Source: Oscillospiraceae bacterium (GTDB lineage Bacteria; Bacillota; Clostridia; Oscillospirales; Acutalibacteraceae). From it: 64,000 bases of DNA. The translations under genes were made by a program, and so were the position numbers. The notes under the pieces are model-generated. The model made no database searches. It saw only the letters and a list, made by a program, of their open reading frames with translations, and had not been told where the DNA came from. Below are positions 10,166-30,861 of the stretch, piece after piece. Numbering within the stretch: the first letter of the stretch is position 1; each line of letters begins with the position of its first letter. The stretch lies in contig CADABX010000002.1 in assembly GCA_902786285.1 (NCBI GenBank), positions 20,855-84,854 of the forward strand, written 5' to 3'.

Positions 10166-10594
10166 ATGGCAATTCAGCAATTATCCGTATTTGTGGAAAA
10201 CCAGAAAGGCAAGCTGCTCGGCACGGTGAAAGCCCTTGCGGACGCGGGCATCAACATCCGCGCAATGAGCATTGCCGACACCAAGGATTTCGGCATTCTG
10301 CGCCTGATCACCTCCGACAACCAAAAGGCGATGGAAGTGCTGGCGGACGAATCGATCGTGAACACGACGATGGTGATCGCGGCGAAGATGGAAGACCGGG
10401 CGGGCGCGCTGTATCAGGTGCTGCAGATTCTGTCCGACGCGCAGATCAACATCGAATACCTCTACGCCTTCACAGCGTCGGAGGACTTCGGCGCCTACGT
10501 GGTGTTCCGCGTGAGCGACGCCGCCGCCGCGCAGGAGATCCTCAACGCCCACGGCGTGGCCACACTCGACGACGCCGACATCATCGAAATCTGA
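10166..10594 (+). CDS. ACT domain-containing protein
   Basis: 142 aa with two ACT-like halves (QLSVFVENQKGKLLGTVKALADAGINIRAMS and IAAKMEDRAGALYQVLQILSDAQINIEY). Confidence 0.75.
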   Translation: MAIQQLSVFVENQKGKLLGTVKALADAGINIRAMSIADTKDFGILRLITSDNQKAMEVLADESIVNTTMVIAAKMEDRAGALYQVLQILSDAQINIEYLYAFTASEDFGAYVVFRVSDAAAAQEILNAHGVATLDDADIIEI

Positions 10595-10608
10595 CCGAAA
10601 CAAAAAGA

Positions 10609-10635
10609 ACGGCCGCCTTGTGCGGTCGTTTTTTT
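10609..10635 (+). terminator. rho-independent terminator of the iorA-iorB-paaK-ACT operon
   Basis: ACGGCCGC-cttgt-GCGGTCGT (one G-T wobble) followed by TTTTTT. Confidence 0.7.
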
Positions 10636-10691
10636 GTACGCGCCAAACGTGCCCGGCTGGGGAGAGAAACCGCCGCCGGGGGAACCACCCG

Positions 10692-10892
10692 GTAGCGCCG
10701 CACTCCGTGCGGCTATGTTGCCCCGCCATCCGCGCCCAGTCGATCGGTGATCGACGCTACGGGCGCTTGGTTTTTATATTGTAGCGCCGCTCATCGAGCG
10801 GCTATGTTGCCCCGCCATCCGCGCCCAGTCGATCTTGCCATCCGCGCCCAGTCGATCGGTGATCGACGCTACGGGCGCCTGGTTTTTATATT
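10692..10892. repeat. two tandem copies of a multi-hairpin intergenic repeat unit
   Basis: Copy 1 is 10692-10780 (89 nt). Copy 2 is 10781-10892 (112 nt) and carries an internal duplication of GCCATCCGCGCCCAGTCGATC. The unit is GTAGCGCCG-[hairpin]-CGGCTATGTTGCCCCGCCATCCGCGCCCAGTCGATCGGTGATCGACGCTACGGGCGCYTGGTTTTTATATT. The first hairpin differs between copies but keeps its pairing (GCCGCAC-tcc-GTGCGGC versus GCCGCTC-atc-GAGCGGC). Confidence 0.85.
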
Positions 10893-10990
10893 ATAGCGCC
10901 GCCCAAATCAAATGCTGCCGTAGGCAGCCACCATAGTCTTGGCTTCCCCGCTTGCGGGGGAGCTGGCATCGCCAACGGCGATGACTGAGG
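10893..10990. repeat. degenerate continuation of the hairpin-repeat mosaic
   Basis: It starts with ATAGCGCCGC, then has the hairpins GCTGCC-gta-GGCAGC and CCCCGC-tt-GCGGGG. The 23-mer at 10911-10933 is the reverse complement (22/23) of 27968-27990. Confidence 0.7.
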
Positions 10991-11115
10991 AGGGGGCGGC
11001 TCATTTTCGCGTACCCGGGTCGACGACTCGCCGACGCTGCAACACCTATTGTGATTTTCCACAAAAATCACTCCGAAATTTCTATCCGCAGAAACAATTT
11101 ATTCAACTTTCCTCA

Positions 11116-11144
11116 TTGACAACACAACCTTGTACAATTAAAAT
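11116..11144 (+). promoter_or_regulatory. candidate sigmaA promoter of the giant gene
   Basis: TTGACA (11116-11121), a 17-nt spacer, TAAAAT (11139-11144), with an AT-rich tract upstream. A second extended -10 (TGTATAAT, about 11305-11312) lies close to the RBS. Confidence 0.5.
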
Positions 11145-11340
11145 AATACTGTATAAGTGGCGGTGTATGCGTTTGCAAACGCGCCCCGCGCAGCAGAAAG
11201 AGGCAACCGTTTTTCCGCCGGGGAAAACGCCCGTGGTCAGAGGGCGTCCGGCAGGGGCGAAGGCCGCTTTTTGCGGCAGGGCAAAGCAGCGCAAACCCGC
11301 ATAACTGTATAATATTATTCTCCAGAAGGAGGACAATTAC

Positions 11341-14300
11341 ATGACAAAAAAAGCAAGAAAAACCGGAAAGCGCTGTCTTGCGCTGTTTATGACCGTGCTC
11401 ATGCTGATGAGCGCGTGGGTGTTCGTTGCGCCGACGGCGAGTGCGGCGGCTGGGAATTATACGCTCGTCTTGAACTATACGATTGATAATGCACCCGGCG
11501 GCAGTTCATATTTAAAGGTTAATATTACGTATAAAACGAATAATGGTACCGGATCTGAGACGTCAACTGGTGACATAAGCATTGCAACGAATAGTTCTCC
11601 TCAAACCGTTACAGTTGCTGGCTGGCCTACAAAAGTTTCGTGGAAAGCAAAAGGTCAGGCATGGGACATTTATAAGGGCCATTTTACCAGTGCTACTATT
11701 AATGGTGCACCAGCTTGGAGCGGCAATTCCGGTTGGGATTCCGGCGGTGGTTTTACTGCATTTGAAAAGAGCGGTAGTTTTGACTTGAGCGCTACTGCAC
11801 CCTATATGGCATCCTTGACTATCTCCGGCACGGGCAGTCATACAATTCCCAAGACCGGCGCGTCGAATCTTACCAGTAACTATACAGTTTCTGCTGCCTA
11901 CGATCAGTACGGCGTACAGTGGTATACGGAGCCGACCAGCACATTCTGGATCAATGCTTCTCAGCCTGCAAACGCGAGTGAAGCAGCCCATGATACCGCA
12001 ACCGGCTGCTCCATCAGCGGTTCAGGTACTTTGACCGTGACGTCATCTGCTCAGATCGCCGGAACGACAAACTCCAAAACAGTTTACGTCTCTTGCGTGA
12101 ACGGCAGTGCTTGGGGTACGAAAGCTGTGACCCTGAACGACCCGAAATATACCGTAAAGTTCTATGACGGCAACAATGCGCAGTTCGGCAGCACGCAAAG
12201 TATCTATTACGGATGCGATGCCACAAAGCCGTCCGGCACCCCGGTGAAGGACCCGGACGCCGATAATCACTATACGTTCTCAAGTTGGGGAACCTATACC
12301 AATATTACCACAGATACCAATGTGAATGCGAGCTTTAATTCTGCATCACATACAGGCACATGGGGAAACAACACGGCAACTTGTACGGCTGGAGGTACGG
12401 AAACACGTACCTGCCCCACCTGCGGCTATGTCAACACCAGAACATCGTCGGCCCTCGGTCATAACTGGGTCACAACGGTCAGCGCGGACCATCTGAAATC
12501 CGCTGCAACCTGCACCTCACCCGCAGTCTATTATAAGTGGTGTTCCCGCTGCGGCGCAAACCACCCGACTGATACCTTTACCAACGGCTCTGCCCTTGGC
12601 CATGATTTCACCGGCGCTTATCAGAATGTCTCCGACGGCAGACATAACAGAAAGTGCAGCCGCTGTAACGAATACGGTATTGGCTCAGGCACAAGCGCTA
12701 CGGTGAACGGCACCGAAGCCTGCTCCGGCGGCACGGCGAACTGCGTTGACAAAGCGGTCTGCCAGCATTGTAACACTGTCTATGGCGTCGTTGACCCCGC
12801 AAACCACAAGAGCACCGAAAACCGCGCCGCAGTTGCAAATAGCTGCGAAACCGACGGCTACACGGCGGGCGTGTACTGCACGGCCTGTAATCAGTGGGTC
12901 AGCGGCCATGAGCCTGTTGCCGCCAAGGGCCACGACTACACCGGCGCAATCCACAGCCTCGGCAACGGCACCCACAACTGGGCCTGTAAGAACAACTGCG
13001 GCACCTACGGTAAAGTGGAGAACGGCACGCAGGTTAAGGACGGAACGGTCTCCTGCGACGCGACCTATGGCGCGTGGAGCGACGACACCGCCACCTGTCT
13101 GGAAGGCGGCTCCCACAGCCGTACCTGCTCCGAATGCGGTTATACGCAGACGGAAGCGACCAGCCAGCTCGGCCACAACTGGGTGACAACGGTCAGCGCA
13201 GATCATCTGATTTCCGCTGCAAACTGCGAAACCCCGGCAACCTATCATAAATGGTGCTCCCGCTGCGGCGCGAACCACCCGAGCGAAACCTTCACCAACG
13301 GCGCCGCCCTCGGCCATAACTACACCGGCGCCGCGCACAACCTCGGCAACGGTACCCACAACTGGGCCTGTAAGAACGGTTGCGGCACTTACGGTAAAGT
13401 GGAGGGCGAGACCCAGGTCAAGAACGGCGTGGTCTCCTGCGACGCGACCTACGGCGCCTGGAGCGACGACACCGCCACCTGCACCGCCGCCGGTTCCCAG
13501 AGCAGAACCTGCTCCGTCTGCGGCTATGTGCAGACCCGGACGACGGATCCGCTCAATCACCATTGGGTAGAAACGGCAAACGAGAATCACAAGGTTTCCG
13601 ACGCGACCTGCGAAGTTGCAAAGACCTATCATAAATGGTGCGACCGCTGCGGTGATGATCACCCGACCGACACCTTCACGGTTGGCAACCCGCTCGGCCA
13701 CGATTATACCGGCGCCCCGCGCGACAACGGCGACGGCACCCACAGCTGGCTTTGCAAAAAAGGCTGCGGCACCTACGGTAAAGTGGAAGGCGATACTCAG
13801 GTAAAGAACGGCAAGACCGGCCATACCTACGGCGACTTCTACGACGTACACGATGCAACCTGTACGGAAGAAGGCTCCCAGACCCATAAGTGTACGGTTT
13901 GTAACAAGGTCGAAACCCTGCCGATTCCGACCAACGACAACCATGACTGGGATGACGGCGAAATCACCACGCCGGCCAATTGCCACGATCTGGGCGTCAA
14001 GACGTTTACCTGCTCCCGCTGCGGTGCAACCAAAACAGAAGACGTTGCAATCAATCCGAATAATCATAAGCATCTGGTCAGAACCGCTCCGGTCGATAAC
14101 GGCTGCGAAAACGACGGCAACATTGAATACTGGTTCTGCGACGGCTGCAACAAGTATTACAGCGATGCGGCTGCAACCCAGCAGATCACGCAGGCGGACA
14201 CCGTGCTTGCGGCGACCGGCCACGACTTCAGCGCCGATGCGTCCCGCATCCACAGTATGAACGACGGCACCCACAACTGGGTTTGCGCCAACGGCTGCGG

Positions 14301-17300
14301 CGCCTGCGGCAAGGTTGAAAACAACACCCAGGTCAAAGACGGCACAGTTTCCTGCGACGCGACCTACGGCAACTGGACGACCGACACGGCAACCTGCACC
14401 GCCGGCGGTTCCCACAGCCGCACCTGCTCTGCCTGCGGCTATGTGCAGACAGAGGAAACACCGGAGCTCGGCCACCGCTGGGTCACGACAGTCAGCGCTG
14501 CCCACAAGATCTCCGACGCAGACTGCGAACACGCAGCGAAGTATCATAAGTGGTGCTCCCGCTGCGGCATTGACCACGAGACCGACACCTTCACCGACGG
14601 CGACCCGCTCGGCCATGACTTCACCGACACGCCGCACGACCTCGGCAACGGCACCCATAACTGGAAGTGCTCTCGCTGCAACGAATACGGTATTGTGGAA
14701 AACGGCGAACAGGTCAAGAACGGTTCCGTTTCCTGCGCTGATACCTATGGCGATTGGGAAACCGTGGTGCAGAACGACTGCGTTAACGGCGGTTCCGAAA
14801 AGCGCACCTGCGCTGTCTGCGGTCACGTTGAAACCAAAGACACCAACCCGCTCGGTCACTTGTTCACGAAGCAGACCGTCAGCGACGCCACGCTTTATCA
14901 GGTTGCGACCTGCAACAGCAAGGCAAGATACTGGTACAGCTGCGCACGCTGCAACGAGATCGAACGCGACGACAATCATACCTTCGAAAGCGGCGAGTTT
15001 GACCCGAATAACCATAACTACGTCTTTGAGCGTACGGTGGATCCGTGGTGCGAAACCCAGGGCTACGACATTTACCGCTGTTCCCGCTGCGGCGACACGC
15101 AGAACCGGAACTTTGTTGACCCGCTCAACCACACCTGGGGCGCATGGGAATCCATCAGCAGCACCCAGCATAAGCGCGTCTGCGAACGCGACGCAAACCA
15201 CAGCGAGACCGAAAACCATGATATGCAGCTGATCGAAACGATCGCCCCGACCTGCGAAGCCATCGGCTATGAGGTCTGGACCTGCTCGGTCTGCGGCTAC
15301 AGCGAACACCGCGAAGAACAGGCGGCGCTCGGTCACGATTTCACAGGTGACGTCAGAGATAACGACAACGGTACCCACAGCTTCAAGTGTACACATGAAG
15401 GCTGCGGCAAATACGGTGTCGGTACGGGCGCTGGCGCCGAAGTCAATGGCAGTGAGAACTGTCAATATGGCGCATGGTCCGAAGACACGGCGACCTGCCT
15501 TGTCGGCGGCAGCCATACCAAGGTCTGCGACGTCTGCGGTCACTCGGTGACTGAAGCGACTCCACCGCTCGGCCATAAGTTTGACGCGGAAATCGTTTCG
15601 GCCGACACATTGGCAGTTCGCGCGACCTGTACAGAACAGGCAGAATACTATTATACCTGCTCTCGTGAAGGTTGCGGCGAGATTCAGCGCGACACAACGA
15701 AGACCTTCAAAGCCGGCGATCCGCTCGGCCATGATTGGGAAACTGAACCCCCGGTCTATCTTTGGGAGAATAACAATACCCGGATGACGGCAACGCTGTA
15801 TTGCGGAAATGATAAGAACCATTCGATTTCTGAGACCGTGACCGCTGCCAAGGTCGTGACGAAGGAACCGACCTGCACCGAAAAGGGCGTTGCAACCTAC
15901 ACGGCCACCTTCGCAAACGATCCGACGCAGAATGAATACAATTATACAACGTCGTTCACCACACAGACCACGACGTCCGATGTGGATAAGCTTCCGCATA
16001 CGCTGACGGATGATACGCACCATGCTGCTGTTGACCCGACCTGCACAGAACCCGGTAACATCGAATACTGGATCTGCGAAGTCTGCGGCGGCTACTTCGA
16101 AGACGTGGGCGGCTATTATCCGACGACTGCCGAAGGCGTTGTCCTTCCCATCGATCCCGACGCTCACAATTGGGGCGATTGGACCGATAACGGTGCAGAC
16201 AACCACAAGCGCGTCTGCTCGCGCGACGAAGAGAACCATGTCGAGACAGAAGCTCACTCCTGGAAGGACATCTATTCCGAAGATCTGATCGTCGGCGACA
16301 AGAACGTGGATCCCTGCACCGGCCGCATCGAATGCTACCAGACCTGCGAAGTCTGCGGCAGAACCAACGATGCAGATCATACCTTCGTCGTTTCCGAGGG
16401 CGAAGGCCACAAGATGCCACTGACTCACCACGAAGCGACCGTTGCCACCTGCGTCACCGCCGGCAACAGTGAATACTACGAATGCTCCGTCTGTGGCAAA
16501 TACTTCTCTGATGCAGAAGGCACCCAGCCGATCGCCGATAAGTCCAGCGTGATCGTTCAGCCGAGCGGCCACAACTGGGGCACCACTCCGGCCTGGTACT
16601 GGGTCAAGAACGGCGACTCCTATGATGTGACTGCAGTCTTCACCTGCACACGTGACATGAGCCACAAGCAAAACATCACTGCAACCGTGACACCGGATGC
16701 GGCCAACCATCCAGCAACCTGCGAAGAGGATGGCGCATCGACATGGAATGCAGTTGCAACGTTTAACGGTGTAGACTACACCGATTCCAAGAGCGAAACG
16801 ACACCGGCCATCGGCCACAAGTATATCCACGTGAAGGAAGGCTCCTGGGTCTGGACGGAATCTGACGGCGCCTACACTGTCAAGGTGACATTGGTTTGTG
16901 ACAACGACTCGACTCACGAAATTGAGCGCGACGCTTTGGTGTCCTATACAACCGACGCGCCGAATTGCACGACGCCCGGTACAAGACATTATACTGCTGC
17001 TGTAGCACTGGACAACGGCACCATGGAAACCGATACAAAGGACAGTGTTGTTCCGGTTGTCGGCCACAGCATGGTTGCAACGGCCAAGAAAGACGCGACC
17101 TGCGACGAAGCCGGTTATGAAGCTTACTGGACCTGCTCCGTCTGCGGCAAGCTGTTCAGTGATGCAAACGGTGAACACGAGATTACCGCACCGGTAGTTA
17201 TCAACGCCAAGGGTCACACCTGGGGCACTCCGGAATACAGTTGGGAGAAGCGCGGCAATGATTACTACGTCACCGCAACCGTGACCTGCACCACCGATAC

Positions 17301-20300
17301 AAGACACGTTGTGACCGAAACCGTGAAGGCGGTTGGCGAACAGACAAAGGATCCGACCTGCACCGAAAAAGGCGAAACCACCTATACCGCCACCTTTGCC
17401 AAAGAACAGTTCTCCACACAGACCAAGGACGTTCAGGATATCCCGACCGTCGCGCACACCCTGACGAAGACAGAGGCGGTGGAAGCGACCTGCACCGTAG
17501 AGGGCTTCGACGCCTACTGGACCTGCTCCGAGTGCGGCAAGATCTTCTCCGATGAAAACGGCGACCATGAGATCAGCGAAGTCACGAAAGCGCTGGATCC
17601 GGATAACCATAAGACGCTTGTTCACACCGCAAAGGTTGACGCGACCTGTCTGGTCAACGGCAACATCGAATACTGGACCTGCAACGACTGCCATCAGAAG
17701 CTCGTCTATAACGACGCGGGCAAGCTTGTGGAAGTGACCGACGTTGTGATTCCGGCCGGCCCGGCCCATCACCGCTTCACGACCCACGTTTCTGAAAAGG
17801 CAGCAACCTGCACACAGCAGGGCAACGTTGAATACTGGACCTGCTCGGTCTGCGGCAAGCACTTTAACGGCAACACCGAGAGCGCAACCGAACTGACCAA
17901 CGTCAGCACCGCTCCGCTCGGCCATGACGTCACAAAAACCGCTGCGAAGGCAGCAACCTGCACCGAAGACGGCAACCTGGAATATTGGTACTGCGCACGC
18001 TGCCATCAGTACTTCCTGGCAGACAGCATCACAGCAGAACCGGTTGCGTTCAGCGCAACGGTCGACCCAAAGAAGGGCCACACCGCTGTGAGCGTGGATG
18101 CGGTTGCGGTACAGTGCGAAGCCGACGGCAACAAGGCATACAGCTACTGCTCCGTCTGCGACACGATCCTGACGCTCGACGGCGTTGACGTTTCGCTCAA
18201 CGGCTGGACGAGGAGAGGCAATTCCGACGTTTATACTATCACCCAGACCGGTCACGCCTACGGCAATCCGACCTGGACCTGGAACGATGACCACACCAGC
18301 GCAACGGCGACCCGCATCTGCGCGAACGACCCGACGCACACCGTTTCGATGACGGACAACGAAATCGAATCCGTGATCATTGATAAGACTCATACCACCG
18401 ACGGCAAGGCGACCTACACGGCAGAGGTGACCTTCGCTTATGACAACAAGACCTTCACCGACGTTGTGGAGATCGTTGACACGGCAAGCGGTCACCACAC
18501 CACCAAGGTCGATGCGAAGGACGCGACCTGCGAAGCAACCGGTAACCTCGAATACTGGATCTGCAACGACGAAGGCTGCGGCAAGCTGTTCAAGGATGAA
18601 AACGCTCTGGTTGAGACCACCCTTGAGGCGGTCACGCTTGAAGCGCTTGGTCACAACTATGTCAACCCGACCTGGACCTGGACGCAGAACGGCAACTTCT
18701 ACACCGGCGCAACGCTGACCTTCACCTGCGCGAACGATGCAACGCACAAGCAGACGCCGGAAGTGACCTTCACCGCCGATCAGACGAACCCCGACTGCAC
18801 GAACGCAGGCAAGATCGTCTACACCGCAACTGCAACCTTCGAAGGCAAGACCTATACCGACACGAAGGAAGTCACACTCGAAAAGGCCGGTCATACGCTG
18901 AGCGCGACGGCTGCCAAGGATGCAACCTGTCTTGCTGACGGCAACATCGCCTATTGGACCTGCTCGGTCTGCAATAAGATCTTCAGCGACAAAAACGCGC
19001 GCTATGAGATCACAGCGGCTGACACCGTGATTCCGGCACTGGGCCACACCTACAACTACGCGAACGCAGCCTATAACTGGAACGCGGATCACAGCAGCTG
19101 CACCGCGACCGCAACCTGCATTCGCTGCGACGCAACGGATACCGAAACCAAAGCCTCGACCAACAACGTCAAGATCCCGGCCACCTGCGAAGCGCAGGGC
19201 ATCGGCATCTACACGGTTGACTTTGACAACGCAAACTTCGCGACCCAGACCTATGACGAGCTGATTCCGGCAACCGGTCACGGCACTGCTGTTATGCATG
19301 AAGGCAAAGCGGCCACCTGCGAAGCAGCAGGCTTCGAAGCCTACTGGACCTGCTCGGTCTGCGGCAAGCTGTTCAAGGCTGAAACGCTGACGGCAGAAAA
19401 CGAAATCGCGAACCCGATCGTGATTCCGGCGACGGGCCACGACTGGGATTACACCAAAGAAAACATCACCTACACCTGGAGCAATACCGAACCCTACACC
19501 TGCACGGCAACTGTGACCTGCAAGAACGACGGCACCCACACGAAGGACGTCACCGGCTCCGTCACGATCACCGATTCGACCGAAGCGAACTGCACGACAG
19601 ACGGTTCCCGCACTTACACGGCGACCTTCCCGGCAGACACCAGCATTCCGAACGACACCAAGACCGCCACAACGCCGGCGCTCGGTCATGACTTCTCCGA
19701 AAGCGTTGACCGCGCTCATGTGGTTGACGGTACGCACCACAATTACAAGTGCGTCCGCTGCGACGCCTACGGTATCATGGACGGCGAAGAAGCGAAGGCA
19801 AACGAATCTGTTGCCTGTACCTTCCACGGCGACTGGCTTGTCAGCGAAAACGAAACCTGCACCGAGGCGGGCAGCGAATGGCGCAAGTGCGACTTCTGCT
19901 CGAACAAGGAAACCAGAGAAAGAGAAGCGCTGAGCCACAAGGTCTTCTCCGTTGACGCAAAGGATGCGACCTGTGTCGCTATCGGCAACAAGGCCTACAC
20001 CTACTGCGAACGCTGCGGTCTGCTGCTGACGGTGGACGGCACAAGCGTGGAAGACCAAAACGTCAAGTTTAACACCCCCGAAGCCATCACATTGTATAAG
20101 ACCGAAGATCCGCTGGCACACAACCTGACGGCGACAGTGGCGAAGGCGGCAACCTGCGAGGAAGACGGCAACATCGCCTACTGGACCTGCTCACTTTGCG
20201 GCAAGATCTTCAACATTGAGAACCCGACGGCTGAAACGACTGCCATCACACTCACGGATACTGTGATTCCGGCAACGAAGCATGACTTCACCGGCGCTGT

Positions 20301-23300
20301 CCGCGACAACGGCGACAACACCCACTCCAAGAAGTGTACGAAGTGCGATGCCTACGGCATCATGGTCAACGGCACACCCGTCAAGGACGGCAAGGAAGCC
20401 TGCTACGGTGGCAATGCCACCTGCACCGATGACGCGATCTGCTCCGTCTGCGGTCATACCTATCAGGCAAAGTCCGGCCACAACTACGTGCTGCAGAGCT
20501 GGACGTGGACCGGCTACACCGCCGCAACCGCCCACTATGTCTGCGCGAACGATGCGACGCATAAGAAGGATGTGGAAGCGACCGTCAACAAGACCGATGC
20601 AACCGTGACCTGCACGGCTGCCGGCCAGAACACCTACGTTGCAACGGCAACCTTCACCGACGGCGACAAGACCTACACCGATACCGACACGAAGACCGAG
20701 GTCGTGAACGCGACCGGACACAACTGGGATTTCGAAAACGCAGTTTACAGCTGGGATGCGAACCAGAACTGCACAGTCACACTGAAGTGTCTGAACGATG
20801 AAGAACACGTCTACACCGAAATCGGCAAGAACACGACCGCAACAACGCCGGCCACCTGCGAAGGCACCGGCTCGGTCAAGTACACCGCAACCTTCACCAT
20901 CAACAGCACCTTGACAAGCGAACACACCGAAACGCTTGCGGCCCTCGGCCATAAGTGGGGCGATCCGGCCTGGACCTGGACCGGCAACGACACCGACGGC
21001 TACACCGCAACCGTGAAGCTGGTCTGCGACCGTGTTGCGTCTCACGAAGCAACACCGGATGTGACCGTCACGAAGGATACCGTGGCACCGACCTGCGAAA
21101 AGGACGGCAGAACCGTCTATACCGCAACGGCGACGCTCGACGGCAGAACCTATAAGGACACCAAGATTACGATCCAGCCCGCGAAGGGTCACGACTGGCA
21201 GGCGCCGGTCTTCACCTGGACCGAAGCTGAAAACGGCGGCTACTCCGCTGCCACCGCGCTGATCGCCTGCAACAACGATCCCGCGCATAATCAGACGCTC
21301 AACTGCGCGCTGACAACCGAAACGGACAACGCAACCTGCACCGAAGGCGGCACCGTGACCTATACGGCGACCGTGACCTTCAACGGTCGGACCTACACCG
21401 AAAAGAAGACGGCTGAAGTGACCGCGCTCGGACACAAGTATGCATTCGTTGACTTCACCTGGACCGGCAACGACGCCGACGGCTACACCGCCGCGGTTGC
21501 CAACTTCAAGTGCGCCAACGATCCGACCCATACCACCACGGCGGCTGCAACCGTGACAACCGAAAAGGTTGACGCAATCTGCGAAGCAGATGGCAAGATC
21601 ACCTATACCGCAAATGTCACCTTCGAGGGCAAGGAATACACCGACGAAAAGGTCGTTGTGCTTCCGATGCTCCACCACGATTGGGGCGACGCCACCTACA
21701 CCTGGGTCAAGGACGGCGATCAATACAAGGTCACCGCGCTGCGCGTCTGCGCCAACAACCCGGATGAACATCAGCAGACCGTCACCGTGACCACCACAAG
21801 CGAAATCACTGCAAGCTCCGGTTGCGAGAGCGAAGGCACTATCCTGTACACGGCGACCTTTGAGGCTCCGTTCGCAACCCAGACCAGAGAAGAATCTGTT
21901 GCGGTTGCCGGCCATACGCTGGTCCACACCGATTATCTCGATTCCACCTGCACCAAAGCCGGTAACATCGAATACTGGCGCTGCTCGGTCTGCGGCAAGA
22001 TCTTCACTGACGAAGCTGCAACAGGGGACTCCTATCTCGGCACGGATCTGGCTGCGACTGTGATCGCTGCCAAGGATCACGATTTCGTGATGGAAGGCAA
22101 AACGATGGTCGTTCTCGACAACGAAGACGGCACCCACTCCTTCAAGTGCTCGCGCTGCGACGCCTACGGCGCAGTGATCGACGGCGTTCAGACCATCAAA
22201 GAAAACGGCGGCTTTGTGCCATGCGTCTATGGTAAATGGACCGTTACCCGCAAACCGACCTGCATGGATCCGGGCGAACAGAAAGCCACCTGTAAGATCT
22301 GCGGTCATGTGGAATTTAAGGAAGTCGGCTATGCTGATCACGTGATCGTCAGAATTTCCGCGAAGTCCGCGAAGTGCGAAGCAGACGGCAACAAGGAATA
22401 CTTCAAGTGCAACGTCTGCGGCAAGCTCTTTGCCGACGCGGCTGCAACGACCGAAACCTCGCTTGAAGCAGTCACCCTGCCGAAGCTTGGCCACAACTTC
22501 ACCGGCGCCATCCATAACGACGGCAACGGCACGACCCACAGCTATCTGTGCGTCAACGGCTGCGGCACCTACGGCAATCCGCAGGCGCATGAATTCGATC
22601 AGCAGATCGCTTCGCAGACCTATCTGCGCAACGTTGCCACCTGCACCGAGCCCGCAACCTACTACCTGAGCTGTAAGTGCGGTCAGGCCAGTACGCAGAC
22701 CTTCACAAAGGGCAATGCGCTCGGTCATAACGACGTTGTTTACACCGGTCAGCCGGCAACCTGCACGCAGGCGGGACATACCGAGTATACGGAATGCACA
22801 CGCTGCCACAGACGTGACGGCTATCAGGTGATTGACGCCCTGAACCACGGCGCATACCTGCCCAACGGCACCGGCGCGTCCGCAGACGGCTCGCTGAAAT
22901 GGACGGTTTACAAGTGCGACCACAATTGCGGCGACTACTACGTCGTTCTGAACGTCACCTCGATCGATGCCCAGGGCACGCGCGTGCCGAACGTGAATGT
23001 TACCATCACCGGCAACAACACGAACATCACCGGCAAGACCGACGGCAACGGCGATCTGAAGCTGTCGGATGAAGCGAAGTACCGGCTGATGCCCGGCGTC
23101 TACACAGTTGCGCTTGAATACGTCAGAGACGGCAGCAACTACAACACCCGCGGCACGGTCACCGTGAAGGACGGCACCGTCACCGGTTCCTACGGCAAGC
23201 TGACGCCGTACGGCGGCAACGCTTCCGGCTCCATGGGCGGTGAACCGACAGGTGAATTCCGCTGCAGCATGTGCAATACGTACGAGAGCACGAAGAATGT

Positions 23301-23370
23301 TCCGGTCTACGGCTGGTTCATCTCGATCATCCACTTCTTCGTACATATGATAAGCCGCATCGGCAAATAA
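11341..23370 (+). CDS. giant (4009 aa) secreted Cys/His-rich modular repeat protein of unknown family
   Basis: Uninterrupted 12,030-nt ORF; GGAGG lies 8 nt before the ATG. Sec signal peptide MTKKARKTGKRCLALFMTVLMLMSAWVFVAPTASA|AAG. One InlB-B-repeat-like unit (YTVKFYDGNN...YTFSSWG, 12144-12336). It then has roughly 65-70 short modules, each closed by (L)GH and containing CxxC or C..H pairs. A beta-sandwich-like domain lies at 22936-23190. The C-terminal CxxC plus hydrophobic tail is at 23251-23367. Confidence 0.9.
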   Translation: MTKKARKTGKRCLALFMTVLMLMSAWVFVAPTASAAAGNYTLVLNYTIDNAPGGSSYLKVNITYKTNNGTGSETSTGDISIATNSSPQTVTVAGWPTKVSWKAKGQAWDIYKGHFTSATINGAPAWSGNSGWDSGGGFTAFEKSGSFDLSATAPYMASLTISGTGSHTIPKTGASNLTSNYTVSAAYDQYGVQWYTEPTSTFWINASQPANASEAAHDTATGCSISGSGTLTVTSSAQIAGTTNSKTVYVSCVNGSAWGTKAVTLNDPKYTVKFYDGNNAQFGSTQSIYYGCDATKPSGTPVKDPDADNHYTFSSWGTYTNITTDTNVNASFNSASHTGTWGNNTATCTAGGTETRTCPTCGYVNTRTSSALGHNWVTTVSADHLKSAATCTSPAVYYKWCSRCGANHPTDTFTNGSALGHDFTGAYQNVSDGRHNRKCSRCNEYGIGSGTSATVNGTEACSGGTANCVDKAVCQHCNTVYGVVDPANHKSTENRAAVANSCETDGYTAGVYCTACNQWVSGHEPVAAKGHDYTGAIHSLGNGTHNWACKNNCGTYGKVENGTQVKDGTVSCDATYGAWSDDTATCLEGGSHSRTCSECGYTQTEATSQLGHNWVTTVSADHLISAANCETPATYHKWCSRCGANHPSETFTNGAALGHNYTGAAHNLGNGTHNWACKNGCGTYGKVEGETQVKNGVVSCDATYGAWSDDTATCTAAGSQSRTCSVCGYVQTRTTDPLNHHWVETANENHKVSDATCEVAKTYHKWCDRCGDDHPTDTFTVGNPLGHDYTGAPRDNGDGTHSWLCKKGCGTYGKVEGDTQVKNGKTGHTYGDFYDVHDATCTEEGSQTHKCTVCNKVETLPIPTNDNHDWDDGEITTPANCHDLGVKTFTCSRCGATKTEDVAINPNNHKHLVRTAPVDNGCENDGNIEYWFCDGCNKYYSDAAATQQITQADTVLAATGHDFSADASRIHSMNDGTHNWVCANGCGACGKVENNTQVKDGTVSCDATYGNWTTDTATCTAGGSHSRTCSACGYVQTEETPELGHRWVTTVSAAHKISDADCEHAAKYHKWCSRCGIDHETDTFTDGDPLGHDFTDTPHDLGNGTHNWKCSRCNEYGIVENGEQVKNGSVSCADTYGDWETVVQNDCVNGGSEKRTCAVCGHVETKDTNPLGHLFTKQTVSDATLYQVATCNSKARYWYSCARCNEIERDDNHTFESGEFDPNNHNYVFERTVDPWCETQGYDIYRCSRCGDTQNRNFVDPLNHTWGAWESISSTQHKRVCERDANHSETENHDMQLIETIAPTCEAIGYEVWTCSVCGYSEHREEQAALGHDFTGDVRDNDNGTHSFKCTHEGCGKYGVGTGAGAEVNGSENCQYGAWSEDTATCLVGGSHTKVCDVCGHSVTEATPPLGHKFDAEIVSADTLAVRATCTEQAEYYYTCSREGCGEIQRDTTKTFKAGDPLGHDWETEPPVYLWENNNTRMTATLYCGNDKNHSISETVTAAKVVTKEPTCTEKGVATYTATFANDPTQNEYNYTTSFTTQTTTSDVDKLPHTLTDDTHHAAVDPTCTEPGNIEYWICEVCGGYFEDVGGYYPTTAEGVVLPIDPDAHNWGDWTDNGADNHKRVCSRDEENHVETEAHSWKDIYSEDLIVGDKNVDPCTGRIECYQTCEVCGRTNDADHTFVVSEGEGHKMPLTHHEATVATCVTAGNSEYYECSVCGKYFSDAEGTQPIADKSSVIVQPSGHNWGTTPAWYWVKNGDSYDVTAVFTCTRDMSHKQNITATVTPDAANHPATCEEDGASTWNAVATFNGVDYTDSKSETTPAIGHKYIHVKEGSWVWTESDGAYTVKVTLVCDNDSTHEIERDALVSYTTDAPNCTTPGTRHYTAAVALDNGTMETDTKDSVVPVVGHSMVATAKKDATCDEAGYEAYWTCSVCGKLFSDANGEHEITAPVVINAKGHTWGTPEYSWEKRGNDYYVTATVTCTTDTRHVVTETVKAVGEQTKDPTCTEKGETTYTATFAKEQFSTQTKDVQDIPTVAHTLTKTEAVEATCTVEGFDAYWTCSECGKIFSDENGDHEISEVTKALDPDNHKTLVHTAKVDATCLVNGNIEYWTCNDCHQKLVYNDAGKLVEVTDVVIPAGPAHHRFTTHVSEKAATCTQQGNVEYWTCSVCGKHFNGNTESATELTNVSTAPLGHDVTKTAAKAATCTEDGNLEYWYCARCHQYFLADSITAEPVAFSATVDPKKGHTAVSVDAVAVQCEADGNKAYSYCSVCDTILTLDGVDVSLNGWTRRGNSDVYTITQTGHAYGNPTWTWNDDHTSATATRICANDPTHTVSMTDNEIESVIIDKTHTTDGKATYTAEVTFAYDNKTFTDVVEIVDTASGHHTTKVDAKDATCEATGNLEYWICNDEGCGKLFKDENALVETTLEAVTLEALGHNYVNPTWTWTQNGNFYTGATLTFTCANDATHKQTPEVTFTADQTNPDCTNAGKIVYTATATFEGKTYTDTKEVTLEKAGHTLSATAAKDATCLADGNIAYWTCSVCNKIFSDKNARYEITAADTVIPALGHTYNYANAAYNWNADHSSCTATATCIRCDATDTETKASTNNVKIPATCEAQGIGIYTVDFDNANFATQTYDELIPATGHGTAVMHEGKAATCEAAGFEAYWTCSVCGKLFKAETLTAENEIANPIVIPATGHDWDYTKENITYTWSNTEPYTCTATVTCKNDGTHTKDVTGSVTITDSTEANCTTDGSRTYTATFPADTSIPNDTKTATTPALGHDFSESVDRAHVVDGTHHNYKCVRCDAYGIMDGEEAKANESVACTFHGDWLVSENETCTEAGSEWRKCDFCSNKETREREALSHKVFSVDAKDATCVAIGNKAYTYCERCGLLLTVDGTSVEDQNVKFNTPEAITLYKTEDPLAHNLTATVAKAATCEEDGNIAYWTCSLCGKIFNIENPTAETTAITLTDTVIPATKHDFTGAVRDNGDNTHSKKCTKCDAYGIMVNGTPVKDGKEACYGGNATCTDDAICSVCGHTYQAKSGHNYVLQSWTWTGYTAATAHYVCANDATHKKDVEATVNKTDATVTCTAAGQNTYVATATFTDGDKTYTDTDTKTEVVNATGHNWDFENAVYSWDANQNCTVTLKCLNDEEHVYTEIGKNTTATTPATCEGTGSVKYTATFTINSTLTSEHTETLAALGHKWGDPAWTWTGNDTDGYTATVKLVCDRVASHEATPDVTVTKDTVAPTCEKDGRTVYTATATLDGRTYKDTKITIQPAKGHDWQAPVFTWTEAENGGYSAATALIACNNDPAHNQTLNCALTTETDNATCTEGGTVTYTATVTFNGRTYTEKKTAEVTALGHKYAFVDFTWTGNDADGYTAAVANFKCANDPTHTTTAAATVTTEKVDAICEADGKITYTANVTFEGKEYTDEKVVVLPMLHHDWGDATYTWVKDGDQYKVTALRVCANNPDEHQQTVTVTTTSEITASSGCESEGTILYTATFEAPFATQTREESVAVAGHTLVHTDYLDSTCTKAGNIEYWRCSVCGKIFTDEAATGDSYLGTDLAATVIAAKDHDFVMEGKTMVVLDNEDGTHSFKCSRCDAYGAVIDGVQTIKENGGFVPCVYGKWTVTRKPTCMDPGEQKATCKICGHVEFKEVGYADHVIVRISAKSAKCEADGNKEYFKCNVCGKLFADAAATTETSLEAVTLPKLGHNFTGAIHNDGNGTTHSYLCVNGCGTYGNPQAHEFDQQIASQTYLRNVATCTEPATYYLSCKCGQASTQTFTKGNALGHNDVVYTGQPATCTQAGHTEYTECTRCHRRDGYQVIDALNHGAYLPNGTGASADGSLKWTVYKCDHNCGDYYVVLNVTSIDAQGTRVPNVNVTITGNNTNITGKTDGNGDLKLSDEAKYRLMPGVYTVALEYVRDGSNYNTRGTVTVKDGTVTGSYGKLTPYGGNASGSMGGEPTGEFRCSMCNTYESTKNVPVYGWFISIIHFFVHMISRIGK
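12350..15726 (+). repeat. intragenic super-repeat zone (about 384-nt, 128-aa three-module unit)
   Basis: The GGCACCCACAACTGG (GTHNW) landmark recurs at 12967, 13351, 13745, 14266 and 14650, with variants at 12637 and 15370. The spacings 12967->13351 and 14266->14650 are exactly 384 nt. Exact shared runs include ACCCACAACTGGGCCTGTAAGAAC (24 nt) and TGGAGCGACGACACCGCCACCTG (23 nt). Confidence 0.85.
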
Positions 23371-23398
23371 ACACCGCGTTGGCTTTGGCCAACAACAA

Positions 23399-23427
23399 AT
23401 GTCCCTGCTTCGGCGGGGACATTTTTG
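23399..23427 (+). terminator. rho-independent terminator of the giant gene
   Basis: ATGTCCCTGC-ttcg-GCGGGGACAT (one wobble) followed by TTTTT. A smaller hairpin, GTTGGC-ttt-GCCAAC, precedes it. Confidence 0.8.
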
Positions 23428-23461
23428 CTGCGTCTTTTCCCTTCGCAAACACTCGGACAAG

Positions 23462-27837: not shown

Positions 27838-28042
27838 TTGTAGCGCCGATCAGTGATCGGCTATTGTGCCTCGCCGTCCGCGCCAAGTCGATCGACCTTC
27901 CGTCAGTGCGCTTTGGCGCACTGCCACCTTCCCCAACGCGCACTGCGTGCGCTGGGGACGGCATCTTTGGTGGCTGCCTGCGGCAGCATTGTATACTGCA
28001 GCGATCGTTTGCGCTTATAGCGGCCCTCGGGGCCGCCGCTAC
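27838..28042. repeat. second locus of the multi-hairpin mosaic repeat
   Basis: ATTGTAGCGCCGATCAGTGATCGGCTATTGTGCCTCGCCGTCCGCGCCAAGTCGATCGAC matches the 10692 unit, with a third compensated hairpin (GCCGATCA-g-TGATCGGC). Further hairpins follow: CAGTGCGC-tttg-GCGCACTG, GCTGCC-tgc-GGCAGC and GCGGCCC-tcg-GGGCCGC. The segment 28017-28042 is an inverted copy of the GTAGCG...GCTAT module. Confidence 0.8.
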
Positions 28043-28075
28043 AGGAGCAGCGTGGTCTAAATTTTCTCGACCCCC

Positions 28076-28104
28076 TTGCATTTTTCCGTGAAATATGGTA
28101 CATT
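28076..28104 (+). promoter_or_regulatory. candidate sigmaA promoter of the 856-aa paralog
   Basis: TTGCAT (28076-28081), a 17-nt spacer, then TGG-TACATT (28099-28104, extended -10-like). Confidence 0.5.
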
Positions 28105-28110
28105 GAAAGA

Positions 28111-28270
28111 GCCAAACAATAACCGGAATCCATTGGAATTCCTATACACATCAAATAAGGACACACTATGAAAAAAGTGCGTCCTAATCCTTGTTTGGTG
28201 TGTCCGATAAGGTTATTGTTTGGCGACAATGGGACGGCATTTTTTGTGCGTCCCTCGTGGACGCATTTTT
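28111..28270 (+). promoter_or_regulatory. structured 5' leader with terminator/antiterminator alternative (class unknown)
   Basis: A 14-bp closing stem, GCCAAACAATAACC (28111-28124) with GGTTATTGTTTGGC (28211-28224). An inner stem, GGACACAC (28159-28166) with GTGTGTCC (28198-28205). A terminator, TGCGTCC-ctcgt-GGACGCA-TTTTT (28247-28270), ends 6 nt before the RBS GAGGAGG. GGGACG (28231-28236) can pair with CGTCCC (28249-28254) instead. Confidence 0.55.
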
Positions 28271-28290
28271 GCTTTGAGGAGGAATACGAA

Positions 28291-30861
28291 ATGAAAACAA
28301 CAAAACGACTGCTTGCTGTGCTGATGGCGGCGGTGTTGCTGTGCGTCGGTGTGCCGTTTGCGGCGCAGGCAGAAGGCGAAACATCATATCAAGTTGGTGA
28401 TTTGATTCAATTTGGGAACTATCCGCAAACAAGAGTAGATGAAACGCCTGAATTAAAAGCCGCTGTGGATGCAGCAGTTTGGGCAAGTTATAAATACTAC
28501 ACAGGAACAGGATCTAATTCAGATGGAAAGATGAAACCAAGTGATTATATGCGTTTTGCTGATTTCTATTGTGATGAAGGGAAATATCGGGCAGTAACTT
28601 TTAACACATACCGTCCGCAGAGTACGGGTGATATTTCCAATCCTGAAAACTCGTGGCAAGACGATAATGGGTATTATGTGAATCAAGTTTATTATTTTAA
28701 ATATGAGCCGTTGATTTGGCGCATTTTAGATCCATCTTCTGGTTTGATTATATGTGAAAGCATAATTGATAGTCAAGCATTTCAAAATACGATTTATTTA
28801 AAGAATTCTGGCTCAGATGTTTCATATCAGTCTGTCACTTCTAGTGTTTATTCGAATGATTATTCAAAATCATCAATTCGAGATTGGTTAAACAATGTTT
28901 TTTTCACAACATCTTTTTCTGATTCCCAAAAGCTGTCAATTCTATCAACAACACTTAATAACAGTGCATACAACGAGAATTATAACCAATATGATTCAGC
29001 ATCAACAACAGATAAACTCTATTTATTGTCTTTTTTTGATGTGACTAATCGTAATTACGGTTTTAGCAGTTCCTCCTCTCAGAACAAGAGCAGAATTGCG
29101 AATAATAGTACAGACTATGCAAAATGTCAAGGATTATATGTTTCAAAAAGCGAGGGTTCTGTAGATAATTCTTTTTGGCGTTTGCGTTCCCCAGGCGGTC
29201 AATTTGGCGGAATGTTAATGGCTTGCTCAGTGAATCCAAAGGGTTCGGTGATTGACGATAGCTATCTGTCGACTACAAGCAGAGGAATAAGACCGGCTTG
29301 TTGCATTGCACCAGTTAAGAATAATAATGATTCATCAAGTGTGTTGTTCTCCTTGGTTGCACATAAACAGCAAGGTCATGTCAATGGCGCTGTTGTTAAG
29401 GATAACGAAATTCCTTCCACCTGCACACAGAAAGGTAGCTATGATGAAGTCGTATATTGCACCGAGTGTGGCGAAGAGCTTTCAAGAACACCGCACGAAA
29501 CCACAATGCTTAACCATACCCCCGGTGAAACGGTGATCGAAAACGAAGTCGCCGCCACCTGTACACAGGAAGGCCGCTATGACGAGGTTGTAAATTGCAC
29601 CGCATGCGGTGCAGAAATCAGCCGAGAAACCAAACCCATCGAAAAGCTTCCACACACTCCCCAAACCTACACCACCTCATCCACCTGCGCCGAAAATGGC
29701 TTCACCATCACCATCTGCACCCGCTGCGGCGAAACGCTCAGCAAAGAGATTCTCCCGCGCCTTGACCACAACTGGACCAGCGAAGTGACACAGAACCCCA
29801 CCTGCACGGCACAGGGTGTGAAGACCTACACTTGTGCGGATTGCGGCGAAACCTATACCGAGCCGGTGGACGTCCTCGCCCATGAATGGGATGGCGGCAA
29901 AATGACCAAAGAGCCATCCTGCACCGAGGCGGGCGAAATGACCTATACCTGCGCGACCGGCGGCGAAACAAGAACCGAACCGATCGACAAACTCGACCAT
30001 GAAATCGTGCTTGTTGCAGGCAAGGCGGCAAGCTGCACCGAACCCGGCCTGACCGACGGCTGGCAGTGTAAAAATTGCAAAAAGTGGTTCGCTGAACAGC
30101 AGACCATTCCTGCCCTCGGCCACGACTCGCAAATCGGCAAGGTTGTGGAACCCACCTGCGAGGACCCCGGCTACACGCCGTTCATCTGCACGCGCTGCGG
30201 CGAAACCGTCAGCAAAACCGACCCGACCGACGCCCTCGGCCACAACATGCAGCCCACCTACGTTTGGGCGAAGGATGACAGCACCGTAACGGCAACGATG
30301 GTCTGCACCCGCTGCGACAAGACGGGTATGACAGAGACCGCAGAGATCAAAACCGAAGTGACCGTGAAACCCACCTGCAGCACCGAAGGCGAGCTGACCT
30401 TGATCGCCGCGTTCAACAACAAGTCATTTTACGGACAGACCAAAACCAAGACCTTGCCGCGCGACCCGAACGCCCACGTGTTCAAAGTCACCGTGACGCC
30501 GCCGACCTGCATGGACGACGGCTACACCACCCACGCCTGCACGCTTTGCCGCTACGGCTACAGCGACGAGATCGTTGCCGCCCTCGGCCACGATTATCAG
30601 CACTACGATGCCAAGGCGCCGACCTGCGAAGCGCCCGGCTGGGACGCCTACGATACCTGCAGCCGCTGCGATTACACGACCTACAGCGAGCTTGCAACAG
30701 TGGATCATGATGACGCCGACAACGACGGCAAATGCGATATGTGCGGCGATCAGATGCAGGGCGGCAGCCATTGCAAATACTGTGGCAAGGTGCACAACGG
30801 CAATTTCTTCGACAAGCTGACCGGCTTCTTCCACCGGATTCTTGCCATTTTCAAACGATAA
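28291..30861 (+). CDS. secreted DUF6273-like domain protein fused to the same Cys/His module repeats (paralog of the giant protein C-terminal architecture)
   Basis: ATG 28291 follows GAGGAGG; signal peptide MKTTKRLLAVLMAAVLLCVGVPFAAQA. DUF6273-like hallmarks are present (FGNYPQ, YEPLIWRILD, IRDWLN, LYLLSFFD, FWRLRSPG, GIRPACCI). About 11 modules of the form xTCTxxGx5-6CxxCG...H follow. The tail is CKYCGKVHNGNFFDKLTGFFHRILAIFKR. The track start 28168 would add 41 aa in front of the signal peptide. Confidence 0.85.
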   Translation: MKTTKRLLAVLMAAVLLCVGVPFAAQAEGETSYQVGDLIQFGNYPQTRVDETPELKAAVDAAVWASYKYYTGTGSNSDGKMKPSDYMRFADFYCDEGKYRAVTFNTYRPQSTGDISNPENSWQDDNGYYVNQVYYFKYEPLIWRILDPSSGLIICESIIDSQAFQNTIYLKNSGSDVSYQSVTSSVYSNDYSKSSIRDWLNNVFFTTSFSDSQKLSILSTTLNNSAYNENYNQYDSASTTDKLYLLSFFDVTNRNYGFSSSSSQNKSRIANNSTDYAKCQGLYVSKSEGSVDNSFWRLRSPGGQFGGMLMACSVNPKGSVIDDSYLSTTSRGIRPACCIAPVKNNNDSSSVLFSLVAHKQQGHVNGAVVKDNEIPSTCTQKGSYDEVVYCTECGEELSRTPHETTMLNHTPGETVIENEVAATCTQEGRYDEVVNCTACGAEISRETKPIEKLPHTPQTYTTSSTCAENGFTITICTRCGETLSKEILPRLDHNWTSEVTQNPTCTAQGVKTYTCADCGETYTEPVDVLAHEWDGGKMTKEPSCTEAGEMTYTCATGGETRTEPIDKLDHEIVLVAGKAASCTEPGLTDGWQCKNCKKWFAEQQTIPALGHDSQIGKVVEPTCEDPGYTPFICTRCGETVSKTDPTDALGHNMQPTYVWAKDDSTVTATMVCTRCDKTGMTETAEIKTEVTVKPTCSTEGELTLIAAFNNKSFYGQTKTKTLPRDPNAHVFKVTVTPPTCMDDGYTTHACTLCRYGYSDEIVAALGHDYQHYDAKAPTCEAPGWDAYDTCSRCDYTTYSELATVDHDDADNDGKCDMCGDQMQGGSHCKYCGKVHNGNFFDKLTGFFHRILAIFKR

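Follow-up and report, generated by a model that had tools for sequence, protein, structure and literature searches.

The 64,000-nucleotide stretch of Oscillospiraceae DNA analysed here (contig CADABX010000002.1; hereafter the window, with positions counted from its first letter) contains one uninterrupted giant open reading frame (ORF), which runs from an ATG at 11341 to 23370 on the + strand and encodes a protein of 4009 amino acids (aa). We consider it probable that this is a giant fibrillar protein on the surface of an uncultured Oscillospirales bacterium (Ruminococcaceae-like) from the rumen, with a polymorphic head carried on a long, zinc-stapled rod. In the scheme that we propose, the protein would be exported via Sec and its signal peptide cleaved, and ~3,500 residues would fold as ~65 small beta-sheet modules laid end to end. 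The resulting rod would hold a ~300-aa N-terminal head off the cell, by something like 0.1-0.3 micrometres at full extension on a rough estimate, with a PLAT-like beta-sandwich at the tip as the probable ligand-binding end. A C-terminal hydrophobic helix and basic end would keep the protein at the membrane, whether as a stop-transfer segment, an in-plane anchor or a sorting signal. Zinc binding, rod length, adhesion, a ligand for the head and anchoring are the parts of this scheme that we infer.

Misassembly was among the concerns of an earlier note on this DNA, made from the sequence alone. The identical 4009-aa protein is found on three independent contigs (NCBI, ENA and Logan), the longest of them 172 kb. 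The best internal tandem DNA array has a period of 384 nucleotides (nt), 2.3 copies and 76% matches, and the other internal repeat copies are 60-84% identical, indicating that the repeats are old. Three contigs and diverged internal repeats rule out an assembly artefact or a recent repeat expansion and, together with a module order that is unchanged in orthologues, they confirm that the gene is real. Two long antisense ORFs inside it, of 2478 aa (12685-20121, - strand) and 1089 aa (20191-23460, - strand), were rejected as shadow ORFs produced by codon usage, because TTA, CTA and TCA together account for only 10 of its 4010 sense codons. Such shadows could mislead gene callers.

To resolve the architecture of the protein, module hidden Markov models (HMMs) were built from hand-picked seeds and scanned along the sequence. 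This segmentation yields 63 non-overlapping Cys/His mini-modules of five types, with ~5 degenerate units in the gaps, in agreement with the ~65-70 modules counted by hand in the earlier note. Type T1 (~51 aa, 18 copies) follows the pattern H-x11-C-x10-C-x2-C...GH; T2 (~80 aa, 14 copies) W.W...C-x5-H...C...GH; T3 (~41 aa, 12 copies) DFTG..dGTH-x3-C-x2/3-C..yG...C; T4 (~39 aa, 11 copies) yG.W...aTC-x9-C-x2-CG...LGH; and T5 (~47 aa, 8 copies) ...H...C-x9-C-x2-CG..H...GH. The cores of T1, T4 and T5 (C-x9/10-C-x2-C) are related to one another, with hhalign probabilities of 74-90%. Assigned modules span 3266 of the 3545 residues of aa 336-3880, and they hold 179 of the 195 Cys of the protein, which also has 44 GH dipeptides. 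The claim of a giant secreted protein made of Cys/His mini-modules is thereby borne out. Module order is non-random: T3-T4-T5 makes up a 128-aa supermodule within the first third, the middle of the protein alternates between T1 and T2, and six consecutive T2 modules occupy aa 3048-3525.

We modelled one stretch of this stalk, aa 2306-2569 (T2-T1-T2-T1), with AlphaFold2 from an alignment whose 33 rows combined internal copies with relatives from databases. The model, which covers the T2 and T1 types, is predicted with confidence (mean predicted local distance difference test score, pLDDT, 95.4; predicted template modelling score 0.58) and is all beta save two 4-residue helices. A Foldseek search of the PDB with this model returned noise alone (template modelling score, TM, at most 0.17), in agreement with the lack of structural homologues reported for the related immunoglobulin A (IgA) protease domains discussed below (PMC12237041, PMC12415215). 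A search of viral structures with the same model gave one match to an SLH-domain fragment attributed to Podoviridae sp. ctdRZ1 (BFVD A0A8S5QLF9, E = 2e-9) and otherwise weak tail-fibre-like matches; we judged this search uninformative. Either the viral-binned contig behind A0A8S5QLF9 is mis-binned or phages bear these modules.

Curated libraries say little about what the modules are. Pfam and NCBIfam returned no significant match on the whole protein, the single sub-threshold Pfam match being zf-A20 (E = 0.036; 14.4 bits against a 21.6-bit cut-off). A segment consisting of T1 modules alone scored 25.9 bits with zf_UBZ (cut-off 25.6; positions 2-16 of 32) and 25.2 bits with Zf_2nd_IFT121 (cut-off 25), summed scores that barely clear, and 22.4 bits with RYYR-CCHC (PF23674), under the cut-off of 27; another segment matched zf-C2H2 at E = 8e-4. 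All of these zinc-finger matches are limited to ~12-24 residues of the knuckle. The likeness to classical zinc knuckles, ribbons and fingers (zf-C2H2, zf_UBZ, RYYR-CCHC, rubredoxin-type) thus lies in partial matches to the T1 hairpin Y-x-C-x2-C-G-K-x-F, whereas the modules differ from them in ligand order (H...C-x10-C-x2-C), in their beta-only context and in being arranged as extracellular tandem arrays. Literature searches on zinc stalk domains in fibrillar adhesins and on RYYR-CCHC found nothing.

Profile searches of PDB sequences were decisive. The T2-T1-T2-T1 profile matched the Thomasclavelia ramosa IgA protease (UniProt Q9AES2; PDB 9qa6, chain 9qa6_A) at residues 844-964 with E = 1.2e-13, residues that are matched by T1 and then by T3-like and T4-like units. 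The T3-T4 profile had the same chain as its top match (E = 6.4e-4), at residues 914-974 (ZBD1) and 1105-1133 (ZBD2). This region has been described both as putative zinc-binding domains, ZBD1/2 (PMC12237041), and as CTD2/4, 'metal-associated periscope domains' (PMC12415215); in terms of our types, ZBD1 is T1 followed by T3-like and T4-like units, and ZBD2 is a T3-like and a T4-like unit. Single-sequence phmmer searches of the PDB with the whole protein, the T3-T4-T5 region and the C-terminal region returned nothing, and the profiles alone reach the protease. The modules had been called unassigned, and it holds true that no curated library names them, but the two profile matches connect them to a described family and so go part of the way towards refuting that claim; the family itself is described from predictions and small-angle X-ray scattering (SAXS), rather than characterised through a tested function. 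The module type had first come to light in a single protease in 2025 and is therefore not categorically new.

The comparison with the protease is informative on several points. At the interfaces between its subdomains, 2His+2Cys and 3Cys+His zinc sites are predicted, and its structures contain 24 Cys, yet no disulfides (PMC12237041); SAXS of CTD2 fits a fully extended rod, for which a stalk role was proposed (PMC12415215). The two proteins share homologous modules and Cys/His quartets at subdomain boundaries, small beta-sheet subdomains are predicted here as well, both would be extracellular, and the protease too comes from a gut Firmicute and has a proposed 'periscope' stalk role. It is from this homologous domain that an end-to-end, rod-like arrangement of the modules is proposed here. 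They differ in scale and in context. In the protease, five subdomains form an accessory stalk beneath an M64 catalytic domain, with a sortase signal at the end, whereas ~65 modules form nearly all of the 4009-aa protein, which has neither an enzyme domain nor a sortase motif. Neither T5 nor T2, the 80-aa type with H-C-H-C ligands, has been described for the protease.

What the Cys and His residues do is suggested by their number and their conservation. Exactly three Cys are present in 18 of 18 T1 and 8 of 8 T5 modules of the 4009-aa protein. Among 744 non-identical T1 modules, drawn from this protein and 278 database proteins, the computed conservation of the ligands is 95% for H0, 97% for C1, 99% for C2 and 99% for C3, and the T2 positions H, C, H, C and H are conserved at 97, 98, 85, 95 and 98% (n = 771). 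The commonest ligand patterns are HCCCH in T1 (653 of 744) and HCHCH in T2 (617 of 771). A few modules have His in place of Cys at a ligand position, such as the T2 module at aa 2306-2385, and, in several relatives as in the 4009-aa protein, the first module of an array likewise has a His ahead of it. An uneven count of Cys next to a near-invariant His, in an anaerobe, points to one tetrahedral Cys/His site per module rather than to disulfides, and the patterns fit a site formed by the boundary His together with three ligands of the next module. Each module boundary would then be clamped by an H-C-C-C site in T1, T4 and T5 and by an H-C-H-C site in T2. Chemistry and the published work on the IgA protease make structural Zn2+ the most likely metal.

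We weighed this assignment against the reading that the Cys form disulfides or other covalent cross-links, or bind iron in the manner of rubredoxin. Weak partial Pfam matches to rubredoxin-type knuckles occur in the 4009-aa protein and in its relatives, and AlphaFold2 models contain no metals, so that prediction cannot separate zinc, iron and disulfide. The three Cys and nearly invariant His of T1, T4 and T5 nonetheless speak against cross-links or iron, as do the Cys-to-His swaps at ligand positions, the strict-anaerobe gene content (genes for indolepyruvate:ferredoxin oxidoreductase adjoin) and the disulfide-free Cys of the IgA protease (PMC12237041), and we regard cross-links or iron as very improbable. 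If structural zinc is the correct reading, the metal sites would replace the disulfides of EGF-like modules in aerobes. Eukaryotic EGF-like, TSP1 and LDLa-type mini-modules offer a functional analogy, one also drawn in PMC12237041: they are beads on a string of 40-80 residues each, with little hydrophobic core and a cross-link to hold them. There is no homology, and the cross-link here is probably a metal site instead of a disulfide, which would suit a reducing, anaerobic habitat. Should the sites hold zinc, these proteins would reveal how thin rods outside the cell are kept stable in strict anaerobes in the absence of disulfides, and would tie surface architecture to the zinc supply of the gut, at ~65 metal ions per 4009-aa protein.

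At the other end of the argument is the head. The Sec signal peptide claimed in the earlier note is evident in the sequence, near-identical in the orthologues P0129, L003, L005 and L008, and modelled by AlphaFold2 as a helix at residues 10-26. The ~300 aa that follow (aa 36-335) contain merely 3 Cys and split, by alignment with relatives, into three parts that we call D1, D2 and D3. D1 is predicted to be a beta-sandwich of 9 strands in an AlphaFold2 model of aa 1-268 made from a five-sequence alignment. The top Foldseek matches of D1 are DUF4425 structures (3u6g and 4qey; probability 0.99-1.0, target-normalised TM 0.46-0.52, E ~5e-3), followed at lower ranks by the PLAT domains of lipoxygenase and lipase and the C-domain of Clostridium perfringens alpha-toxin. 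The predicted D1 fold is thus like that of PLAT/LH2 and DUF4425, whereas its sequence identity to them is just 8-14%, and in a model of moderate confidence we treat the PLAT/LH2 likeness as a lead and not as an assignment. D2 bears a conserved DQYGVxW motif and aligns with P0002, P0129, P0147, L002, L004 and L014. D3 had been described as an InlB-B-repeat-like unit, a claim that we could not verify: by pattern it is Flg_new/InlB-B-repeat-like, but Pfam Flg_new (PF09479) gives no match to it even at E <= 10, and its BLASTP match to the genuine Flg_new domain of P0129 has E = 0.42. A phmmer search connects D3 with a fivefold-repeated unit of the SLH proteins of L009 and L010, and with P0002 and P0237. 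A search with the head alone in 5.8 billion proteins gave 2 matches, from an index that seems poor in long proteins.

Comparison with orthologues indicates that the head is the variable part of the molecule. All species-representative genomes with N-terminal relatives are metagenome assemblies from the rumen or gut, classed as Oscillospiraceae, Ruminococcaceae, Acutalibacteraceae or unclassified Clostridia. In L003 (Ruminococcaceae bacterium RUG10646), the 8.6 kb upstream flank is 93.8% identical in DNA to the window, the promoter, leader and signal peptide 87%, and the first modules 82%, whereas the head-coding DNA between them (11444-12718) gives no alignment and the encoded heads share 31-34% aa identity. 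L005 likewise has 86-96% identity to the 4009-aa protein in the covered C-terminal half and 40-48% in the head. The heads fall into at least two sequence types with common motifs (AG.Y, ..NG.G.E, G[WF]PT and DQYGV.W). Those of P0129 and P0147 are ~900 aa with extra domains, the enlarged regions being aa ~300-900 in P0129, with its genuine Flg_new at aa 628-701, and aa ~290-860 in P0147; head stretches of orthologues such as 'KWY.F.P...G.Y.FF' resemble, by eye, pre-peptidase C-terminal (PPC) domains. The head is therefore modular as well as variable. The giant orthologues L005, L008, P0129, P0130, P0133 and P0147 range from at least 3113 up to 6448 aa. Those in which the C-terminal end is present keep the last 13 modules in the same order and match in the C-terminal domain and tail, and P0130, within its covered portion, exceeds the 4009-aa protein by 12 modules. 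Conservation of base and stalk, module insertions and deletions, and a polymorphic tip are together what a surface protein would be expected to show if its far end encountered a ligand, phage or host factor that varies. A head that differs sharply between near-conspecific genomes, where the flanking DNA is 94% identical, is likely to be a site of strain-level selection, and is a candidate for interaction with host, particle or phage.

The opposite end of the protein combines a conserved domain with an unusual tail, both of which the earlier note had described. The C-terminal ~130 residues comprise a beta-sandwich-like domain, recognised through sub-threshold Pfam matches, and then the tail (...PTGEFRCSMCNTYESTKNVPVYGWFISIIHFFVHMISRIGK). 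The domain is kept in P0129, P0130, P0133 and P0147 (E 1e-27 to 1e-123). The same tail is present in these four and in P0235, with related tails in P0123, P0124 and L007, and the consensus in orthologues is [FW]RC..C-x19/20-H-x3-H-...-basic. Within it, (E/Q/K)PTGEFRCSMC (~23248-23280, aa 3970-3979) is strictly conserved, also in P0129, P0130 and P0133; it lies 18 residues before the hydrophobic tail and resembles the motif part of a C-terminal sorting signal, though it is not LPXTG. We considered 'EPTGE' as an LPXTG equivalent and rejected it because the spacing is wrong; it is not a five-residue LPXTG-type motif. As had been claimed, standard anchors are missing: no canonical LPXTG was seen by eye in the C-terminal sequence, and Pfam and NCBIfam gave no SLH, dockerin or choline-binding match. 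The best 18-residue window of the tail has a Kyte-Doolittle hydrophobicity of 1.64 and a hydrophobic moment of 0.30, against 2.02 and 0.05 for a sortase-signal control, and the moment of the last 18 residues is 0.57. For the tail we consider four roles: a stop-transfer segment, an amphipathic anchor lying in the plane of the membrane, a final zinc site, or a sorting signal of a new kind; with modest confidence, we favour a membrane anchor.

The sorting-signal alternative holds that the motif, hydrophobic helix and basic end are recognised and processed by an enzyme that attaches the protein covalently to wall or lipid, by analogy with LPXTG/sortase or MYXO-CTERM. It draws on the conservation of a three-part layout (PTGEFRCSMC, spacer and hydrophobic helix, SRIGK), on the absence of a match to the tail in NCBIfam, the home of known C-terminal sorting domains, and on a second tail family similar in style (CxCxCH, amphipathic helix, CxC..H[YW]) in other giant module proteins. 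No candidate processing enzyme adjoins the gene, however, its neighbours being housekeeping genes, and the CxxC...HxxxH spacing could equally make one last zinc site; a processed signal is therefore in our view a doubtful, though serious, possibility. The second tail type occurs in L011, L014, L015, L017, P0152, P0237, P0245 and P0263, where CxCxCH or a close variant precedes a strongly amphipathic F/K-rich helix (moment 0.6-0.74), followed by CxC or CC and by an aromatic residue among the last few positions; the libraries searched hold no name for it. The conserved tail of the 4009-aa protein may be a new anchoring route in Gram-positive bacteria.

If the tail had no anchoring role, the protein might instead be released, as a biofilm-matrix fibre or as a metal-buffering scaffold that serves as a metal sink or store. 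The lack of a canonical anchor (LPXTG, SLH or dockerin) would agree with release, as would the finding that the module-bearing IgA protease is mostly in the culture supernatant (PMC12237041), and the very many potential metal sites (~65 Cys/His sites) would suit buffering. Release is at odds with the tail itself, whose motif, hydrophobic helix and basic end are strictly conserved in orthologues of 3113-6448 aa, and with the many module-bearing relatives whose ends are sortase-signal-like, SLH-like or dockerin-like; all-Cys/His coordination, in turn, is typical of structural and not of exchangeable metal (PMC12415215). We think a released or metal-buffering protein unlikely, and retain the reading of a fibre held at the cell surface.

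The modules themselves are widespread. An exhaustive search of 1.84 billion cluster representatives (clusters at 50% identity) with the T2-T1-T2-T1 profile found 35,170 protein clusters at E <= 1e-3; tightening the limit to E <= 1e-10 leaves 20,538, and to E <= 1e-30, 6,560. The best 150 relatives have a median length of 1930 aa, 36 of them are at least 3000 aa, and the longest is 6448 aa. A Cys-rich extracellular protein of this size had been considered unusual for a strict anaerobe; with so many clusters, many of them of giant proteins, that view does not hold, and Cys-rich surface proteins are common in these anaerobes. Our own motif rules, applied to the C-termini of the best 150, left 103 unclassified, incomplete sequences included, and assigned 22 as sortase-signal-like (a transmembrane segment and basic tail), 8 as SLH-like and 8 as dockerin-like; 5 have the tail type of the 4009-aa protein and 4 the second Cys/His-amphipathic type. 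In the relatives scanned with Pfam, SLH, cohesin, LRR_5 (BspA-type), Big_2 and Flg_new domains adjoin the modules, a company that, at the level of sequence, marks the modules as a generic extracellular spacer of gut and rumen Firmicutes. Since Pfam and NCBIfam have no model for them, the label 'hypothetical' still attaches to thousands of large clostridial surface proteins from gut and rumen, and the five module alignments could seed curated families.

In several features the protein recalls the fibrillar adhesins of Monzon and Bateman (PMC8286594, PMC9210967) and such Periscope Proteins as SasG/Aap, with G5-E repeats: it starts with a signal peptide, its long stalk is repetitive and beta-rich, a separate head occupies one end, and relatives differ in length, as does P0130 with its additional modules. 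The stalk modules match no catalogued stalk domain, however, and neither a recognised adhesive domain nor a recognised anchor was found, both of which fibrillar adhesins have. The earlier suggestion of a surface fibre, adhesin or metal-loaded scaffold was in the right neighbourhood. Canonical Periscope Proteins have near-identical tandem DNA repeats, whereas the repeats here are diverged (60-84%, with 76% in the best array), which makes rapid slippage unlikely. In SasG/Aap, moreover, zinc mediates dimerisation through pliable His/Asp sites, and not through full Cys/His coordination within one chain as envisaged here. What is new is that this module type makes up nearly the whole of a 4009-aa protein; new, too, are two further types (T2 and T5), the extent of a family that domain databases lack, the polymorphic head and the conserved non-canonical tail. 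More speculatively, the protein may be an extreme case of a large uncurated class of metal-stapled extracellular mini-modules that replace disulfide-rich ones in anaerobic Firmicutes and form rods of up to a few hundred nm, the CxxC...HxxxH and CxCxCH tails being an unrecognised anchoring or sorting signal and the PLAT-like head a swappable recognition cassette; taken jointly, we advance these ideas as possible and tentative.

A number of observations weigh against the picture of a zinc-stapled, membrane-held fibre with a binding head. T2, which accounts for 14 of the 63 modules, is without a counterpart in the IgA protease, and T5 is also unrepresented there. Even in the protease, the zinc sites are called 'putative' and 'pending experimental validation' (PMC12237041). 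The helix of the tail sits on the border between transmembrane and amphipathic. In the head, the PLAT-like match of D1 is weak (TM ~0.5, E ~5e-3, pLDDT 73-84, five-sequence alignment), D2 is not modelled confidently by AlphaFold2 (pLDDT 25-40), and no known adhesive domain is found, Pfam giving no match to aa 36-335 even at E <= 10.

Sequences that resemble expression signals flank the ORF (Table 1). A ribosome-binding site (RBS), a promoter and a terminator had been claimed for this 12,030-nt ORF, and all three were located, each as a consensus match only. A scan returned an overlapping weaker site at 23411-23430.

Table 1. Features of the gene and of the 4009-aa protein, with positions in the window.
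Feature	Residues (aa)	Position	Strand	Description
Promoter-like site		11116..11144	+	TTGACA-17-TAAAAT; sigma-70-like, 11/12 positions match; surrounding stretch 81-87% conserved in L003, L005 and L008
Leader		11145..11340	+	~195 nt; RBS AGAAGGAGGA 7-8 nt 5' of the ATG, can pair with upstream UUCUCC
Signal peptide	1-35	11341..11445	+	Sec type; MTKKARKTGKR, hydrophobic core, predicted cleavage at TASA/AAG; read directly from the sequence
Head domain D1	~38-150	11452..11790	+	Predicted beta-sandwich, AlphaFold2 pLDDT 73-84, 9 strands; diverges strongly between close relatives
Head domain D2	~155-265	11803..12135	+	Conserved motif DQYGVxW
Head unit D3	268-335	12142..12345	+	Flg_new/InlB-B-repeat-like by pattern alone
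Stalk	336-3880	12346..22980	+	63 Cys/His mini-modules of five types and ~5 degenerate units, by HMM segmentation
C-terminal domain	~3881-3960	22981..23220	+	Beta-sandwich-like; sub-threshold Pfam alone (Big_1 E = 0.011, CarboxypepD_reg E = 0.022)
Tail	~3970-4009	23248..23367	+	PTGEFRCSMC, 20 residues, IIHxFVHxISRIGK (CxxC-x20-HxxxH); hydrophobic/amphipathic helix, basic end
Terminator-like hairpin		~23400..23432	+	TGTCCCTGC-TTCG-GCGGGGACA then TTTTT; GC-rich, read from the sequence, 5' of the promoter of the next gene

Upstream of the gene lie genes for indolepyruvate:ferredoxin oxidoreductase subunits, a PaaK-like AMP-binding ligase and an ACT-pair protein, and downstream those for an HI0933-like flavoprotein, cytidylate kinase and an IspH-S1 fusion, all of them housekeeping genes. 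With its own promoter and terminator and such neighbours, the gene looks monocistronic, and the adjoining indolepyruvate:ferredoxin oxidoreductase genes point to a strict anaerobe as host. The leader is 81-87% conserved in L003, L005 and L008, whereas the coding DNA right past the signal peptide is unalignable, and the leader may be regulatory. RNAalifold, run on the leader alignment, places there a hairpin (UUCUCC-AGAA-GGAGGA) that would sequester the RBS, with all pairs invariant and thus without support from covariation; an Rfam search of the leader and gene region gave no real match.

The long intergenic region 5' of the gene contains imperfect direct repeats of ~45-55 nt at 10640-11050, as well as a perfect tandem repeat of 1.9 copies (unit 23 nt) at 10814-10857. 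Synteny with L003, at 93.8% elsewhere, is reduced to one 218-nt match across 10298-11047, and this repeat region may be a small mobile or repeat element. Farther downstream, the G+C content falls to 0.446 at 28001-30000, against ~0.57 elsewhere. This stretch, which may be foreign DNA, lies inside an 897-aa ORF (28168-30861, + strand) whose sole Pfam match is DUF6273 (E = 5e-18).

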